Source: Nitrosopumilaceae archaeon (lineage in GTDB: Archaea; Thermoproteota; Nitrososphaeria; Nitrososphaerales; Nitrosopumilaceae). Taken from it: a stretch of DNA of 64,000 bases. Position numbers and translations under genes: made by a program. Of the stretch, positions 3,030 to 64,000 are shown in pieces (position 1 is the first letter of the stretch; the number at the start of each line of letters is the position of its first letter). Location: contig CBDATR010000024.1 in NCBI GenBank assembly GCA_965200155.1, forward strand, positions 288,001 to 352,000, in the 5' to 3' direction. The notes under the pieces were generated by a model. That model was given only the letters and a program-made list of their open reading frames with translations, made no database searches and was not told the DNA's origin.

Positions 3030-3750
3030 TCCGTTGCTGTTTTGTAGTCCACGATCTGGTAGTAATAACGTATCCCACAGATGAGACCAGTAATACTATG
3101 GAGGATTCCAGTGGAAACTCAGGCACGGCAGCATACTCATCAGATTCTGCCATCAAGGCATAATCGGAGATTACCGCAATTTGATCTTTCAGGTAATGAG
3201 TTACAAATGCCCCCTTATGCCCAGATCTAAGAAAATCCGGTTCCATCTGGACTCTGGAGATGTTTCCGTTCTGATCATAGATGGTGGCGACTATTGCTAA
3301 CATATTGGCTGCGATATCGCCCTTGTTGTATACTTCACCGGTGATGAATATATCCCCCTGGGCGCTTTTCTGTATCTGTGCAGACGTGACGTCTATAACC
3401 TGACTTTTTGGAATACCAACTTCATACTCTGCCTCTACAACATATTTAGCCACATCTTGTATTGCAGGATCAACCATTATCACATCAAACGGGCCCCTTA
3501 TACCAGGCATCAAGCTGTTGATCAGCGATGCACCGTCACCAGCGAGTACAACTTGTCCTTGATCATCATACATAGTTGCAAGAAGACGTATCTGTCCCAT
3601 GGCACGTCCAGGTCATTCTTCACCTCACCCACAATGTGCAGGGAACCATTCATTTCCCACATACATTCTATCGTTCTGCACGTATACCTCACCCCAAGCT
3701 ACGGGTGTAAAAATTATCATTGCAATCCCGAACGTCACTTGGGGTATCAC
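2995..3750 (-). pseudogene. Secreted/surface FxLYD-like protein with a PEF-type C-terminal anchor; frameshifted N-terminus
   Basis: C-terminal VPEFP plus TM segment. The signal peptide (GTG at 3750) and the GSLHIVGEVKND segment lie in shifted frames near 3650 and 3601. Confidence 0.6.
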
Positions 3751-7132: not shown

Positions 7133-7224
7133 GTATGAGTTCACGTCTTCCGGAATCTTGTGCACAAATCACATTAACTGTCGCGATCAGTTGTGCGTAA
7201 ATTTAGACACAGGTGAACTCATAC
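7133..7224. mobile_element. MITE1 (92 bp, TIR GTATGAGTTCAC)
   Basis: 8-bp TSD CACCAGGG; empty site present in IS copy 2. Confidence 0.97.
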
Positions 7225-13235: not shown

Positions 13236-14128
13236 TGAATGACATATGCCGGGCCGACGGCATAATATTCGACTGTGATGGTGTTTTGGTGGATGTGGCC
13301 CAATCATATACGGAGACCATAATCCGTACGGTGTCATACGTGATGCAGTGGTTGGGCATGCCCGGGGCGCCATCCATAACCCCTGCCATAATACAGTCCT
13401 TCAAGGATACCGGCAGCTACAATAACGAGATTGATTTGGCATATGCTGCCATACTGTGCCTGTCCGGCTCCGATCGCACCGGACTTAACCCGTCCGAGGT
13501 ACTTGATACAGGTTCCCGGTATCATGGCATATCTGACATGGAAGAATATGCTTCTACATTGGGTATATCTGATGTACTGGAGAGACTGTCATACCCAGGC
13601 AAGGACAGTATTGTCTCTGAGGTGTTTGATCAGCTGTTCTACGGGCCACGCCTTTATCATGAACGGTTCGGTATTCCATCCAGATTTAGCGAGCCTGGCT
13701 TAATAGAGAATGAGATACTGGTGATTGATACGCCGTTGTCCCAGTGGTTACGCACAAAGTTTGGCGAGCGGATAGGATTACTCACTGGCCGGAGCAGGAG
13801 ATCCGCCGAGTATACATTAGGTAAGTACATGAACTTGTTCAATGTGGATGCGTCCATGTTCCTGGAGGATATGCCAAGACACCTGGCAAAACCAAACCCG
13901 CAAACACTATCTGATGTCATTCGCGCCATGAATCTAAGACACTGTACATATGTGGGCGACTCTGCCGAGGACTTGATAATGGTAAAGGCAATGCCGGATA
14001 TGGTTACATTCGTCGGCGTATATGGCTCCGCACCAATCCCGGAGGATCGCCGCCGTGCATTTGAATCGGCAGGAGTTGTGCACATGGTGGGCTCCATTAC
14101 ACAGCTGCCCACCCTGTTGGGTCAGTAA
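13235..14128 (+). CDS. HAD-family hydrolase (possible histidinol-phosphate phosphatase)
   Basis: FDCDGVL, KPNP and YVGDS motifs; coupled to hisC through TAATG. Confidence 0.85.
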   Translation: MNDICRADGIIFDCDGVLVDVAQSYTETIIRTVSYVMQWLGMPGAPSITPAIIQSFKDTGSYNNEIDLAYAAILCLSGSDRTGLNPSEVLDTGSRYHGISDMEEYASTLGISDVLERLSYPGKDSIVSEVFDQLFYGPRLYHERFGIPSRFSEPGLIENEILVIDTPLSQWLRTKFGERIGLLTGRSRRSAEYTLGKYMNLFNVDASMFLEDMPRHLAKPNPQTLSDVIRAMNLRHCTYVGDSAEDLIMVKAMPDMVTFVGVYGSAPIPEDRRRAFESAGVVHMVGSITQLPTLLGQ

Positions 14129-14251
14129 CGCATATGTGCGTAAATTCACGTCCGACGGATCGCGATGATTAGGATATGTATCGTGATTCTCGACCCAATA
14201 TCCACCAGTAATACTTTACATTGCACAGTATACCATCTCATTCTCAGTATG

Positions 14252-14343
14252 GTGTGAGTTCGCTTGCGTTTACATTAATGCATAGCGGATCGTAGCAATC
14301 AGTATGGTTTTTGAGCACTGGGATTGGAGATGCGAATTCATAC
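14252..14343. mobile_element. Old, diverged MITE1 copy
   Basis: 92 bp, GTGTGAGTTCGC…GCGAATTCATAC, collinear with the MITE1 consensus. Confidence 0.7.
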
Positions 14344-14845
14344 AATCGGGATGTGTGGTTGGTGCTTAAGTGATCGTACTGCCTAAACGGTTTAACTGGT
14401 ACGTGAACTCAAGTTTGTTGTATAATCAAGTTACGTTGAAAAATTGCACTGGTGACAATAGTTTGTACATTTCCATCAGTGACAGTCATTAGATCCAAGT
14501 CAATAGTACGAAAAGTAAGTCCGCTTAGGATCCGGCGTACAGTAGTTCAGATTGCACAAGCCATATGGTAAAGAGAATAACAGAGGAATCAAGACAAAAG
14601 AGGCGTTGCCACAACCAACATAGCTCAAGACCCGAAACAAGACACGTACGAAGATTGTGAACCAGAGAACGGGAACTACTCGAGTAAAGATGGGCAGGCC
14701 CATGATACCAATCACCGCCACCCAGATACGAATGGTAACTGAATCATACAGCAAGGATCCCGCCGGAGTAGTACGTATTGCAAAGAGGCTTAGACATGAT
14801 ACATATCGCGCAGTATATCGCATAATGAAAAAGAACGGTACGGCA

Positions 14846-14955
14846 GGCTCATCACCTGCAAAGTCAGAGTGGGTACGCTATGCTGACTTGCTTGGTGCAC
14901 GATTCCATGCCGCTGCTCGGCTCATCACCTGTAAAGTCAGAGTGGGTACGCTATG
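14846..14955. repeat. 37-bp direct repeat, 36-bp unique insert, 37-bp direct repeat (CRISPR-like single-spacer unit inside an IS)
   Basis: GGCTCATCACCTG(C/T)AAAGTCAGAGTGGGTACGCTATG at 14846-14882 and 14919-14955; the paralog near 37085-37125 has a single copy and no insert. Confidence 0.95.
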
Positions 14956-15280
14956 AGCGTAAATATTCCAATGTGGCACGTAGACTGGCATGTCATGAAA
15001 GATGAGCGCTTCAAGGGACTGAATCTCATAGATGATGCATCCAGGTGTATAGTCGGAGCGGCACTATTTGAGCATGCAACCTGAGAACGCCACTCTATTA
15101 CTGAGACTGGTAATGAAACGATTCGGCGACCCTGCATCTCGGATAACGGCGCGTGTTTCGTAGGACAATAAAAGGGCAAAAAGAACTGGAAACCCACTAT
15201 TCTAGGAAGAACTGCTGGATCAAGACATCATACTAATCAATTCCAGACCATGCCACCCGCAGACAAATGGCAAACTGGAG

Positions 15281-15379
15281 GTATGAGTTCACCTGTGTCT
15301 AAATTTACGCACAACTGATCGCGACAGTTAAAGAACCGGTTCTTTTGTGCACAAGATTCCGGAAGACGTGAACTCATAC
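15281..15379. mobile_element. MITE1 variant (99 bp) inside the IS481-like relic
   Basis: TSD AACTGGAG; empty site at ~36777-36784; AGAACCGGTTCT replaces TGTGA. Confidence 0.95.
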
Positions 15380-15659
15380 AACTGGAGCGCTTCCACAGAA
15401 CGATTGAGGACGAGATATGACATCATGACAGTCTCCGGGATTATGTTGACTACTACAATGAGAGAAGATTGCACTTCTCACTGGATAGATAACGGCGAAA
15501 CACCACTCCAGGAATAAAAAGGCGACCCAGACAATTAGGGCAAATGATGCAAAATGGATGGAGCGGGATGCCAATGACTAGCGGACCGACTTTTCATACA
15601 TTACAACTCCCACATTGGGGCCAAAGTTGTTAAATGGTATTTCCGGTCTCTATATCATA

Positions 15660-16244
15660 ATGAACCGCACGTGTAGTATGAAACGCACAACCTCGGAGAC
15701 AGATGTTGGGGTATCGGTGAACCTGGATGGGCTGGGCAAGGCCGACGTTGAAACAGGCAACAAATTCATAAATCACCTGATAGCGTCCTTCTCTCACCAT
15801 TCCATGATGGATGTACATGTGCGCGCCAGCTCACTGGACGGTATACTTCACCACTTGGTGGAGGATACCGCGATTACCCTGGGAAAGGCCATCTGTGATG
15901 CCCTGGGGAGCAGGCATGGCGTGGCGCGGTTCGGGCACACATCCATACCCATGGATGAGGCCCTGGTGGAGGTATCTGTAGATTTGATAAGACGCCCATA
16001 TGGCATGGTGAATCTGTCCCTAAAGGGGGACTCCGTGGAGAATGTGCCCCATGAGGATATAACCCACTTCTTTGCCTCACTAATACAGAATATGGAGGCA
16101 TGCGTGCATGTGCGTGTCATATACGGCGATAACGATCACCACAAATCCGAGGCGGCAATAAAGGCACTGGCAGTATCGATGCGGCAGGCAATATCCCCTG
16201 ACAGTAAGTATTCGGGAGCTCCCAGTACCAAGGGGACCATGTAA
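15660..16244 (+). CDS. hisB: Imidazoleglycerol-phosphate dehydratase
   Basis: RTTSETD, HHLVED, PMDEAL, NDHHKSEA, PSTKG. Confidence 0.96.
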   Translation: MNRTCSMKRTTSETDVGVSVNLDGLGKADVETGNKFINHLIASFSHHSMMDVHVRASSLDGILHHLVEDTAITLGKAICDALGSRHGVARFGHTSIPMDEALVEVSVDLIRRPYGMVNLSLKGDSVENVPHEDITHFFASLIQNMEACVHVRVIYGDNDHHKSEAAIKALAVSMRQAISPDSKYSGAPSTKGTM

Positions 16245-16840
16245 TGGTCCGTCTGGCGCTGTATGATTATGGTGCGGGAAACATATTCAGCCTAAAAAAC
16301 TCTTTTGAGAGACTGGGAGCCCAGGTGGATGTAATTGCCGACTTTGGCAAAACAGGATACTCCGGGTTACTGCTTCCTGGTGTGGGCAGCTTTGATGCAG
16401 CCATGCTGGATATGCCGAATCCGGGCATCCATGAATTTGCCGGTGACACATTACCGGTTTTGGGCATATGTCTGGGCATGGAGATGTTTCTGGATTCCAG
16501 TGACGAGGGGAGCGAGGCCGGTCTTGGTGTCATACCGGGCAGGGTGGAATCGTTACCCCCCACCCTGAAGGTACCACATATGGGGTGGAACAGTTTGGTT
16601 ATACACAGGCAGGGAATACTGCTGAATGGTGTTGATAACAGTTCATGGGTATACTATGTACACTCATACATGACTCATCCTGATGATGATGCAGTCATAA
16701 CCGCGGTATCAGACTACGGCATGAATATACCGGCCGTACTTGAGAGGGGTAATTATTTCGGTACACAGTTTCATCCGGAAAAGTCCGGACCCACGGGCCA
16801 GCTTATACTGGAGAATTTTCTGCGTGAATGTAAAAAATGA
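16244..16840 (+). CDS. hisH: IGP synthase glutamine amidotransferase subunit
   Basis: LPGVGSF, GICLG, PHMGWN, QFHPEKS. Confidence 0.97.
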   Translation: MVRLALYDYGAGNIFSLKNSFERLGAQVDVIADFGKTGYSGLLLPGVGSFDAAMLDMPNPGIHEFAGDTLPVLGICLGMEMFLDSSDEGSEAGLGVIPGRVESLPPTLKVPHMGWNSLVIHRQGILLNGVDNSSWVYYVHSYMTHPDDDAVITAVSDYGMNIPAVLERGNYFGTQFHPEKSGPTGQLILENFLRECKK

Positions 16841-18371: not shown

Positions 18372-18695
18372 ATGAAACTGGCTGTTGACAATCTGGACTT
18401 TGCCAAGGGCTCGGGGATAATACCCGTAATAGTGCAGGACACAGAGACCATGGATGTACTGACACTCGCATACTGTAACAGGGAGGCCCTGAATCTCACA
18501 CTAAAGACGCGCAAGTCCTGGTTCTGGAGTCGATCCCGCCAGAAACTCTGGATGAAGGGTGAGGAGTCCGGGAATACACAGGAGGTGGTAAATATATTGG
18601 TGGACTGTGACTCAGATGCCATAATATACCTGGTGAGGCCATCGGGGCCTGCCTGCCATACCGGCCAGCGAAATTGCTTTCATAACACGCTGTAG
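18372..18695 (+). CDS. hisI: Phosphoribosyl-AMP cyclohydrolase
   Basis: SRSRQKLWMKGEESG, DCDSD, ACHTG. Confidence 0.96.
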   Translation: MKLAVDNLDFAKGSGIIPVIVQDTETMDVLTLAYCNREALNLTLKTRKSWFWSRSRQKLWMKGEESGNTQEVVNILVDCDSDAIIYLVRPSGPACHTGQRNCFHNTL

Positions 18696-36556: not shown

Positions 36557-37490
36557 TGTAATGTATGAAAAGTCGGTCCGCTAGTCATTGGTATCTCGCT
36601 CCATCCATTTTGTATCATTTGCTCTAATTGTCTGGGTCGCCTTTTTATTCCTGGAGTGGTGTTTCACCGTTATCTATATCCAGTGAGAAGTGCAATCTTC
36701 TCTCATTGTAGTAGTCGATATAATCCCGGAGACTGTCATAATGCCATATCACATCCTCAATCATTCCATGGAAGCGCTCCAGTTTGCCATTTGTCTGCGG
36801 GTGGTATGGCCTGGAATTGATTAGTATGATGTCTTGATCCAGCAGTTCTTCCTAGAATAGCGTGTGTTTCCAGTTCTTTTTGCCCTTTTATTGTCCTGCG
36901 AGACACGCGCCGTTATCCAAGATGCAGGGGCGCCGAATCGTTTCATTGCCAGTCTCAGTAATAGAACGGTGTTCTCTGAGGTTGCATGCTAGAATAGTGC
37001 CGCTCCGACGATGCACCTAGATGCATCATCTATGAGATTCAGTCCCCTGAAGCGCTCATCTTTCATTACATGCCAGTGCCACATTGCATTGGAATATTTA
37101 CGCTCATAGCGTACCCACTCTGACTTTGCAGGTGATGATCCTGCCGTACCGTTCTTTTTCATTATGCGATATACTGCGCGATATATTGTAATTCTGTCTA
37201 AGCCTCTTTGCAATACGTACTACTCCGGCGGGATCCTTGCCGTATGTTTCAGTTACCATTCGTATCTGGGTGGCGGTGATTGGTATCATGGGCCTGCCCA
37301 TCTTTACTCGAGTCGTTCCCGTCCTCTGGTTCACAATCTTTGTACGTGTCTTGTCTCAGGTCTTGAGCTATTTTGGTGACAGCAACACCTCTTTTGTCTT
37401 GATTCCTCTGTTATTCTCTTTACCATATGGCTTGTGCAATCTGAACTACTGTACGCCGGATCTAAGCGGACTTACTTTTCGTACTATTGA
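36557..37490 (-). mobile_element. IS481-family-like relic copy 2 with 15-bp TSD
   Basis: TGTAATGTATGAAAAGT end; GCTACCCTCATCTAA at 36542-36556 and 37491-37505. Confidence 0.9.
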
Positions 37491-38589: not shown

Positions 38590-38688
38590 GCAGGGATATC
38601 GAAGCTCGGTCAACCGAGAAGGACTCAAGATCAATCATAAGAGATCCTTTCCCTCAGGGGTTCGTGGGTTCGAATCCCACTCCCTGCA
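38590..38688 (+). tRNA. tRNA-Leu(CAA) with a short canonical intron
   Basis: GCAGGGA/TCCCTGC stem; aagga-ctCAAg, ~14-nt insert, atcctt; GGTTCGAATCC. Confidence 0.92.
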
Positions 38689-38706: not shown

Positions 38707-38815
38707 GGTGTATAACAGTCACGCAACGGCGGTGTTCTTTACTGGCCACCAAGTCACTGGATGCCATAAGGGAGATGCGGTGTATAACAGTCACGCAACG
38801 GCGGTGTTCTTTACT
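38707..38815. repeat. 37-bp direct repeat, 35-bp unique insert, 37-bp direct repeat (CRISPR-like single-spacer unit)
   Basis: GGTGTATAACAGTCACGCAACGGCGGTGTTCTTTACT is identical at 38707-38743 and 38779-38815. Confidence 0.95.
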
Positions 38816-44487: not shown

Positions 44488-44890
44488 GTATGAGTTCACG
44501 TGTTTTGATCATTCACTAAGATATAGATTGGTATGATAATATTTTGCTTAAATACAAAATTTGCAATAAGAATCTAATGAGAAGACGCCGGTCCTATAAG
44601 GAATTGGAACTGGAAAAACAGATTCTTCAGGATACCCTTGCGTCTACCAAGAAAGATCTTGCACATTACAAAGAACGTCTGAGAATATTGGAAGCACATA
44701 TATCACACGCACCATAGAAGAAATACGAAATCACATGCAAGATTTCCAAATTATTAGGAATTATGTAAATGAATTGGAAGAGAAATTAGAAGAAAAACAG
44801 GGGAAAATTGCGGTAATCACAACGCGACTTAAATATTATGAGAATGCTCACTCGCCGTATGAGTTCACGTGTTTTGATCATATAATAAGA
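44488..44890 (+). mobile_element. IS66-family left end with transposase N-terminal relic; a second left end starts at 44857
   Basis: GTATGAGTTCACGTGTTTTGATCAT at 44488 and 44857; RLKYYENAHSP relic. Confidence 0.7.
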
Positions 44891-58879: not shown

Positions 58880-59508
58880 ATGCCATACTACTGTACCTAG
58901 AGGCAATATTCTTGCAGGAAGATGGTGGCTTTATGGATTTCTTGGGCGGAGATCGTGGCGCGCTGGGTAGCGATGATCCCGTCATAGCCGGTGTTATAGC
59001 GGCTGCCTTTGCGGTATCCGGTTTTGGTATACTGTTGAATCTAATGAATGCTGCCATACGCAAAAAGATGGTAGACCAGGTAAAGTGGCGCCGCATAATG
59101 AAGGAGACAAGAGCATTCCAGAAGGAGCGAATGTCTGCCTATCGTTCCAAGGATCAGGCCAAGATAGATAGCCTTAACAAAAAATCCGCATACATGAACA
59201 AGCTCTCCATGGAGCTGATGCAAATGAACCTGCGTCCCATGATGATCACATTTGTCCCCCTGATACTGATATTCTACTTTGTACTGCCGTACCTCTTCTC
59301 GTATACGGTGGCAATATCTCCCATACCCCTTAATGTCATACCCGGCGACATCTTTGCGCTTACATGTACCGCAGAGCAAGCGGCAGATCCGGATCATGTA
59401 TGTGAAACGGAGAATACAATCTTTCTTTGGGCGTGGTACTTTTTGTCTTCCATAGCGTTTAGCGGAATGATAATGAAACTCACCAAGACAAGTATGGATC
59501 TCACTTGA
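58876..59508 (+). CDS. EMC3/TMCO1 (DUF106) Oxa1-superfamily membrane protein
   Basis: TM, coiled coil, RPMMITFVP and WYFLSS; located between adk and cmk. Confidence 0.88.
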   Translation: MNAILLYLEAIFLQEDGGFMDFLGGDRGALGSDDPVIAGVIAAAFAVSGFGILLNLMNAAIRKKMVDQVKWRRIMKETRAFQKERMSAYRSKDQAKIDSLNKKSAYMNKLSMELMQMNLRPMMITFVPLILIFYFVLPYLFSYTVAISPIPLNVIPGDIFALTCTAEQAADPDHVCETENTIFLWAWYFLSSIAFSGMIMKLTKTSMDLT

Positions 59509-63807: not shown

Positions 63808-64000
63808 CCCGTATAGCTCTCAAACAGTCTTAATTTAAAGGAAATGCAGGGTATGTTCTCCCGTTATTATGCAAACCGTGGTGTTAGTTTAAGCTGATCC
63901 AGATTGATGTACGCGGCCACGCCATTAAAATGATGCTAGGTTAGGCGACAAATCTGAGTGTGTAACCTTGAATATTCTCTGATGCCGGAGCGACTCCTTA

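Follow-up and report, generated by a model that had tools for sequence, protein, structure and literature searches.

The window analyzed here is a 64,000-nt stretch of DNA from a sponge-associated Nitrosopumilaceae archaeon, covering positions 288001 to 352000 of contig C24 in an assembly labelled G000, and the element under study lies at positions 14846 to 14955 of that window, inside a degenerate copy of a high-copy insertion sequence (IS). Two 37-nt direct repeats, identical at 36 of 37 positions and spaced 73 nt from start to start, enclose a 36-nt fragment of unrelated sequence, giving a unit of 110 nt in all for which 37 nt is the maximum duplication length. Our analysis indicates that this focal unit is very probably a fixed off-target (ectopic) full-site spacer integration by Cas4-Cas1/Cas2 of the host's own type I-G-like CRISPR system. 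The features at the site, in window coordinates, are as follows.

14497 to 15607, plus strand: degenerate copy of the IS that hosts the focal unit, delimited by homology to other copies, with broken frames
14846 to 14882, no strand assigned: pseudo-repeat copy 1 (duplicated target), 37 nt, GGCTCATCACCTGCAAAGTCAGAGTGGGTACGCTATG, 36/37 identical to the paralogous IS copy
14883 to 14918, no strand assigned: inserted fragment (ectopic spacer), 36 nt, between both 37-mers, single-copy in the genome
14919 to 14955, no strand assigned: pseudo-repeat copy 2, 37 nt, with a C>T difference at its 14th base
About 36557 to 37490: second window copy of the host IS, the paralogue with the empty site
37105 to 37141, minus strand: empty ancestral-type site in that paralogue, a single 37-mer without insert

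A duplicated target in a degenerate insertion sequence

The first-pass annotation of this DNA had described a 37-bp duplication with one mismatch around an unrelated 36-bp insert, a description that both the sequence and a repeat search confirmed. It had also pointed to an empty IS paralogue in the window; the single 37-mer without insert is indeed there, but about 20 nt from where it had been placed. Genome-wide, 80 IS copies span the junction and the 73-nt addition is confined to the focal one, with the other 79 lacking any insert (72 overlap by exactly 37 nt and seven have small indels). At the base where the two focal repeats differ, aligned IS copies carry C in 74 cases, T in five and a gap in nine, and the T in the second focal repeat is therefore probably a later substitution.

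The insert shows no similarity to either flank, which rules out tandem duplication as the origin of the unit, and no inverted repeats were detected at the unit. No second copy was found in the 2.38-Mb, 51-contig assembly, where the next-best match is 14 nt. The insert is neither a local copy nor a remnant of a terminal-inverted-repeat element, either of which would have counted against the first-pass annotation. Searches of viral contig and metagenome contig collections returned 0 exact matches. The region is present in seven public runs from two studies, labelled sponge metagenome, and its unique flanks at 13500-14526 and 15579-16500 were confirmed in short-read contigs of four runs from two studies.

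The IS that received the insert is present in about 80-87 copies genome-wide, which differ by about 6%. In none of the 87 matches examined could a clearly intact transposase open reading frame (ORF) be found: full-length copies reach no more than about 250 aa, and the only longer ORFs, of 384 and 374 aa, follow partial matches. When checked for the DDE integrase core (rve) of an IS481/IS3-type element, the focal copy yields only sub-threshold Pfam hints in broken frames (rve, E 0.069; HTH_21, E 0.052). This family is apparently an old, dead burst that now provides a neutral landing pad.

Ectopic units and the CRISPR-Cas locus of the genome

With the true CRISPR array left out, we searched the genome for pairs of direct repeats at periods of 30-130, seeding on 12-mers and lengthening the matches by X-drop extension. 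Repeats of 36 and 37 nt accounted for 23 and 38 pairs, compared with 3-9 for each length from 30 to 35, and 65 pairs with repeats of 34-41 nt fell at periods 71-75, compared with 0-4 at other periods. Among pairs outside the array with periods of 69-78, lengths 36 and 37 gave 20 and 32 pairs against 0-5 for neighboring lengths, so that chance is no explanation for the focal unit. Ten pairs of a separate 37-mer family ('fam2') were dropped before counting, as were C40:6293 (a 35-nt tandem repeat), C9:12517 (in a repeat-rich region) and C10:339147 (a whole unit duplicated on C35). After this filtering 54 ectopic units remained, with inserts of 34-39 nt, which is the genome-wide peak that the first-pass annotation had proposed to look for. 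Their duplications measure 35 nt in two units, 36 in 18, 37 in 24, 38 in five, 39 in three and 40 in two, and are perfect in 44 units with one mismatch in ten; their periods are 71 (3 units), 72 (20), 73 (16), 74 (8), 75 (6) and 78 (1). Unique DNA holds 37 of the units and repeated DNA 17, with at least eight inside copies of the host IS.

The host genome carries an adaptation module with closely similar dimensions. Its single Cas1 match (PF01867, E 4e-92) lies on contig C9 in a Cas4-Cas1 fusion encoded by one 549-aa ORF, with PF01930 at residues 14-194 and PF01867 at residues 225-503, and the next gene encodes Cas2 (91 aa, PF09827). After cas1-cas2 comes the true array, which consists of 289 repeats of the 36-nt sequence ATTTCCGCAGCCTAACGGTTGCGGCCTCATTGAAGG, the distal (last) one degenerate, separated by spacers of 35-39 nt; its periods are 71 (16), 72 (85), 73 (101), 74 (63) and 75 (15), with the modal value of 73 found in 101 of 288. 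The focal insert of 36 nt falls within this spacer range and the focal period equals the modal period of the array, so that the search for cas genes and a true array suggested by the first-pass annotation was productive on both counts. We also considered a 37-nt repeat with a G at the spacer 3' end derived from the protospacer adjacent motif (PAM), and ruled it out. The base that precedes the true repeat, at position -1, varies (T87, G85, A82, C35), and the repeat length is therefore 36 nt, not the 37 nt assumed earlier.

Beyond the array lie genes for Cas3, Csb2/GSU0054 (PF09609, E 2e-21) and Csb1/GSU0053 (PF09617, E 1e-45), the Cas3 having its helicase at the N-terminus and Cas3_HD at the C-terminus (residues 766-859). 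A 319-aa ORF adjoining the effector genes, considered in seeking the large subunit Cas8u/Csx17, had no Pfam match. Judged from its gene content, the C9 locus has the predicted architecture of type I-G (formerly I-U), and we refer to it as type I-G-like. Elsewhere in the genome, an orphan copy of the true repeat with two mismatches and a leader-like remnant lies beside an IS copy at C43:128229-128263 on the minus strand, and cas2-like and repeat fragments occur at C22:9852-9979 and C22:30274-30419; these are remnants of other or decayed CRISPR loci.

Ectopic units are concentrated at the cas locus, where five lie within 10 kb upstream of the true array compared with 0.23 expected. Two of these five occupy C9:70400-70587 (about 18401-18588 of locus L002), sitting precisely between the stop codon of cas1 and the start of cas2. 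This block consists of three copies of a 37-nt stretch containing the cas1 stop and the cas2 start, together with two 37-nt inserts copied from C10:291117-291150 and C24:421310-421346, and it leaves both genes intact but moves them apart by 148 nt. In the relatives G001, G006 and G008 the junction is shorter by 139-148 nt and is therefore empty; in G005 it is compatible with a 148-nt difference, less exactly, as the cas1 alignment stops short of the junction.

Other units lie in or beside genes. Several units of period 72 lengthen long ORFs in frame, at C22:16729 (546 to 570 aa), C10:40507 (246 to 270 aa) and C43:106025 (244 to 268 aa), and further units break or abut an ORF for an Mrr-like nuclease, an amidohydrolase at its C-terminal end, and the 5' edges of the serine hydroxymethyltransferase (SHMT) and dihydroorotate dehydrogenase genes. 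Periods divisible by three make up 27 of the 54 ectopic periods against 102 of the 288 true periods (p 0.048), with 16 of 37 in unique DNA and 11 of 17 in repeats. This excess is marginal and not stronger in unique DNA, and we consider it too weak to claim selection for in-frame insertion.

Genomes of the same genus carry a homologous Cas4-Cas1 and Cas2 together with arrays whose 36-nt repeats belong to the same family and whose periods are 70-76. The complete same-genus genome G005 (2,214,775 nt), which served as a control, gave no peak in an identical scan; at periods 69-78 it returned one pair of 36 nt, two of 37 and three of 38, mostly 75-nt coding tandem repeats. Only two of its candidates are clean, at positions 586038-586147 (36-nt duplication, period 74) and 2004738-2004846 (37-nt duplication, period 72) of its contig C1, and for neither insert was there a donor within G005 itself. 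A further candidate, at 3508-3616 of locus L007 close to the G006 cas locus, has a 37-nt duplication, period 72 and four mismatches. It follows from these scans that ectopic units occur at a low level in the genus and are more than 20-fold more frequent in G000.

Donors and target sites of the inserts

Defining a donor as an alignment elsewhere in the genome of at least the insert length minus 6 with no more than two mismatches, we found host-genome donors for 28 of the 54 ectopic inserts and for 0 of the 288 true spacers (Fisher p 2e-26). Donor cores are exact for 22 ectopic inserts, and no full-length match in the host exists for any of the 288 true spacers; host-derived spacers would be self-targeting in a real array, and none is present there. 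The trinucleotide TTN adjoins 9 of 21 exact donors, compared with 20% for random positions treated identically (p 0.014). The window itself contains one such donor as well as a second ectopic unit.

38707 to 38815, no strand assigned: second ectopic unit in the window, perfect 37-nt duplication, 35-nt insert, period 72
59374 to 59403, minus strand: donor (protospacer) of the ectopic unit at C10:530646, with TTC immediately 5'

The insert of the unit at 38707-38815 is an exact copy of C10:205388-205422, and the unit lies 19 nt downstream of a tRNA gene that contains an intron and spans 99 nt (38590-38688).

A connection between the ectopic units and the array comes from C25:4760, whose insert (C25:4797-4831) overlaps true spacer 58 (C9, about 75210-75245) by about 26 nt on opposite strands. 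Neither this insert nor spacer 58 has a host donor, and spacer 58 is the only true spacer with a match outside the array. The overlap therefore indicates that one non-host sequence supplied fragments to both the array and an ectopic site. The ectopic inserts are otherwise all different, and the sole 15-mer shared among the inserts and true spacers is the one between C25:4760 and spacer 58. As a separate observation, contig C10 (540 kb), which makes up 22.7% of the assembly, holds 14 of 24 single-copy donors (binomial p 1.8e-4), at positions ranging from 28 kb to 479 kb; candidate reasons for this excess are copy number, replication landmarks or the contig being a separate replicon.

The target sites carry a signal at their ends. 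An orientation expectation-maximization motif search of the targets gave a weak signal (total information content 6.7 compared with 4.66±0.46). The informative signal emerged only from a symmetric analysis of both ends, in which 53 sites gave 106 ends, each read from its nick toward the interior of the site. At +2 the target ends are enriched for T (49/106), at +3 for G/T, at +4 for C (44/106), and at both +10 and +11 for G/C (p 2e-8 and 9e-7), with T depleted at -3 and -2. The true repeat reads nnTTCnnnnnSS at both of its ends (ATTTCCGCAGCC in the top strand, CCTTCAATGAGG in the bottom one). With a leave-one-out position weight matrix (PWM) built from ectopic sites only, the sites score a mean of 1.69 compared with -3.36 for random positions (Mann-Whitney p 6e-17); ranked by this matrix among random positions, a true repeat reaches the 99.91st percentile and the focal site the 98.5th. 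Recurrence points to particular positions as well, with one IS position struck independently three times (C13:35858, C34:161231 and C34:37402) and another struck twice (C34:19810 and C24:245716).

Together these patterns bear on whether the unit could instead be an accident of replication or repair, through template switching or through fill-in of a staggered break with filler DNA captured by end joining. Approximately half of the inserts copy host DNA, as filler DNA often does, and the first seven bases of the focal insert, CTGACTT, are complementary in reverse to AAGTCAG within the repeat, which could hint at template switching. This 7-mer match is weak, however, and the insert is unlike either flank. 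Repair would not be expected to impose a fixed geometry, yet the 54 units share 36-37-nt duplications and periods of 71-75; nor would it be expected to leave PAM and target-motif signals, or a same-genus genome with only about two units. We regard a repair origin as highly unlikely.

The same data address whether an off-target insertion has since become a working mini-CRISPR locus that is transcribed, processed and used in defense or regulation. The first-pass annotation had spoken of a proto-CRISPR unit, and the repeat-spacer-repeat architecture does have that structure; two ectopic loci, C9:70400 and C24:237593, have in addition grown to three repeats and two spacers, so that re-use of such sites is possible. 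The focal 37-mer, however, is unlike the true repeat overall, so that function as an array is not indicated, and its lack of meaningful identity beyond the end motif makes processing of the Cas5-Cas6 type unlikely. The unit also sits inside a broken IS gene with no evident leader, and half of the ectopic inserts exactly copy host genes and would be self-targeting if functional. A working locus is accordingly a slim prospect, and the ectopic units are best read as scars of adaptation infidelity.

Further repeats were observed in and around the window. Two staggered ectopic units occupy C24:352098-352298, which is 98-298 nt past base 64000, and the target of the second integration overlaps the repeat copy made by the first with an offset of 21 nt. 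A 37-nt word, CTTGCGTCTACCAAGAAAGAACTTGCACATTACAAGG, forms the terminus of another repeated element and occurs at 87 sites, most of them solitary, including a window copy at 44637-44673. Several copies have it in triplicate with a 72/66-nt period and 'spacers' common to copies, and other copies have unique spacers (example sites are C10:6462-6636, C24:97241-97415 and C24:500844-501097). This pattern suggests that ectopic spacers were gained at the end of the element and then spread with it. The 3' end of the word (…ATTACAAGG) resembles that of the true repeat (…ATTGAAGG).

Nested in the focal IS copy, and separate from the integration event, is a short element that resembles a miniature inverted-repeat transposable element (MITE).

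15281 to 15379, no strand assigned: 99-nt MITE-like element

Members of this MITE-like family measure about 92-99 nt with termini GTATGAGTTCAC…GTGAACTCATAC, and 575 copies of at least 85 nt are present in the genome at a median identity of 88%; those in the window include further copies at 7133, 7351, 9266, 27483, 36304, 45037 and 54699. The archaeal small-subunit (SSU) ribosomal RNA model scores 1437.6 bits over all 1,478 model positions, and tRNAs of intron-containing length are present in the window.

Interpretation and relation to known systems

The first-pass annotation had proposed a fixed off-target acquisition by Cas1-Cas2, and this proposal is supported by the genome-wide peak, the array geometry, the donors with their TTN enrichment, the overlap with spacer 58 and the end motif. 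The assignment of catalysis to Cas4-Cas1/Cas2 draws on the established chemistry of Cas1-Cas2, from which we infer that an integrase loaded with a prespacer of about 36 nt would have attacked the IS copy by two staggered transesterifications, one on each strand and separated by about 36-37 nt. The spacing of the cuts would be set by a molecular ruler that normally spans the 36-nt CRISPR repeat, and gap repair would then have doubled the 37 nt in between, leaving one copy on either side of the insert. The site was probably picked for the weak likeness of both its ends to the true repeat's symmetric end motif. Its location in a dead IS would have made the insertion neutral, allowing it to persist with one substitution since. 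The probable prespacer nature of the focal insert itself rests on analogy, through its likeness to the other ectopic units.

Several observations weigh against this interpretation. TTN is found at fewer than half of the donors, and the identity of targets to the true repeat over their whole length is barely above random (mean 14.2 compared with 13.6 of 36 positions, ungapped). Among duplications whose length is pinned by the donor, two measure 36 nt, two measure 37 nt and one measures 38-39 nt, which is looser than in the real array. The focal insert has neither donor nor PAM in searches of the genome and of viral and metagenome contigs. It is also without confirmation in independent reads, as the Logan contigs of four runs break inside the IS and none spans 14883-14918. 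Finally, the assembly is 87.6% complete, leaving room for a second integrase.

The read data bear most directly on a possible assembly or consensus artefact, such as a chimeric join or a mis-polished long read in a highly repeated IS, since the unit lies within an element of about 80 copies at which public short-read contigs fragment without showing the insert. Against such an artefact, the insert is a unique 36-mer absent from the other IS copies and its flanking repeats differ by one base. The catalog speaks in the same direction, as 37 of the 54 units lie in unique DNA and 22 inserts exactly copy distant loci at CRISPR-period sizes, an arrangement that assemblers do not generate. We consider an artefact very improbable.

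The looseness of the duplications and the incompleteness of the assembly, together with the CRISPR remnants on C43 and C22, would be compatible with a different integrase or transposase having a ruler of about 36-37 bp, for instance a casposase-like enzyme, that made the insertions with no involvement of CRISPR adaptation. Only one Cas1-family match is present in the genome, however, and duplication length, insert range and modal period all coincide with the host array. In addition, the motif learned from ectopic targets ranks the true repeat near the top of random positions, one insert overlaps a true spacer, donors are TTN-enriched as for Cas4/1, and ectopic units cluster beside the cas locus. 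There is accordingly very little probability left for another enzyme. The alternative of an undescribed integrase with the same geometry, which the first-pass annotation had offered, is unnecessary. We thus regard the focal duplication as explained by off-target integration and not as the product of a new integrase.

A wider reading, which we put forward tentatively and consider possible rather than likely, is that Cas4-Cas1/Cas2 acts genome-wide as a 'copy-and-paste' insertional mutator and as a source of genome evolution. On this reading as a whole, the integrase would sample mostly the chromosome of its host, with a preference for one 540-kb contig, and paste fragments of about 36 nt at repeat-like sites, with a rate or fixation probability more than 20-fold above that of a congener. 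Its products could include in-frame protein insertions of 24-25 aa, insertions beside gene starts, and seeds of new arrays, some of which, lying at a transposable element's 37-nt terminus, would now be spreading as its passengers. Under the same tentative reading, the insertion of two spacers between cas1 and cas2 may have uncoupled expression of the two genes and lowered integration fidelity.

The catalog points to dozens of natural, fixed off-target events by a type I-G Cas4-Cas1 integrase in one sponge-associated archaeon. As a record of what adaptation captures before selection, the ectopic units are about half self DNA, compared with none in the real array, and this contrast offers direct evidence at the genome level that functional arrays lose their self spacers through autoimmunity. 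The units also give an in vivo read-out of the target code of the integrase (nnTTCnnnnnSS) and of the precision of its ruler when no repeat is present. As one-, two- and three-spacer neo-units, some on a mobile element, they provide concrete intermediates for the birth of CRISPR arrays de novo, and they exemplify a defense system that serves as a mutagen from within, here in a host-associated archaeon that is also overrun by copies of IS and MITE elements.

Transposons, MITEs and casposons insert through staggered cuts followed by fill-in, which duplicates the target on both sides. Unlike the products of such elements, the ectopic inserts here are all different and 34-39 nt long, the focal unit has no terminal inverted repeats, many inserts copy host genes, and duplications of 36-37 nt are far longer than those usual for transposons. 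Insertion of a transposon, MITE or casposon does not fit these data, as there is no recurring element with defined termini and only one Cas1 homologue.

Off-target integration creating neo-CRISPR loci was described by Nivala, Shipman and Church in 2018 for the E. coli type I-E system, as cited in 10.1101/148544, PMC7054753 and PMC6698737. According to 10.1101/148544, that work needed overproduction of Cas1-Cas2 and added 'circumstantial evidence' from two other species. The likeness to our units, so far as these sources describe it, lies in the insertion by Cas1-Cas2 of a spacer-sized fragment at a non-CRISPR site, with duplication of a repeat length and with sites resembling the leader-repeat region. 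The events reported here differ in being natural and fixed, in involving an archaeal type I-G-like Cas4-Cas1, in numbering 54 in one genome and in being about half host-derived. The off-target mechanism is therefore already known, whereas its natural scale appears unreported in the literature searched: full-text literature searches turned up no account of a single genome with dozens of natural off-target integrations, though such reports may exist in subscription journals or supplements.

Two other adaptation systems provide partial parallels. For Pyrococcus furiosus Cas1-Cas2 in vitro, PMC6698737 describes paired opposite-strand sites one repeat length apart, and off-target sites that resemble the repeat mainly at the borders and at a few internal positions, as in our catalog. 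Those experiments used plasmids in vitro and a 30-bp repeat, whereas the events described here follow a 36-37-nt ruler in vivo, on the chromosome, with the motif nnTTCnnnnnSS. Ectopic acquisition in the type II-A systems of Streptococcus thermophilus and S. mutans, as outlined in PMC7999890, PMC5338259 and PMC8265633, likewise places integration away from the leader-proximal repeat; there genuine array repeats are targeted, whereas here the targets are ordinary genomic DNA without a repeat.

A further comparison is with the Geobacter sulfurreducens type I-U (now I-G) system, for which PMC6547450 reports that Cas4/1 gave a TTN PAM in about 50% of unique new spacers, which were mostly 36 bp. The two systems are alike in the Cas4-Cas1 fusion, in spacers of about 36 bp (35-39 nt here) and in the use of TTN (9 of 21 donors here). 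They differ in that the Geobacter system was assayed in E. coli, where it inserted mainly plasmid-derived spacers into an array, whereas the integrations in this archaeon lie outside the array and draw largely on chromosomal DNA.

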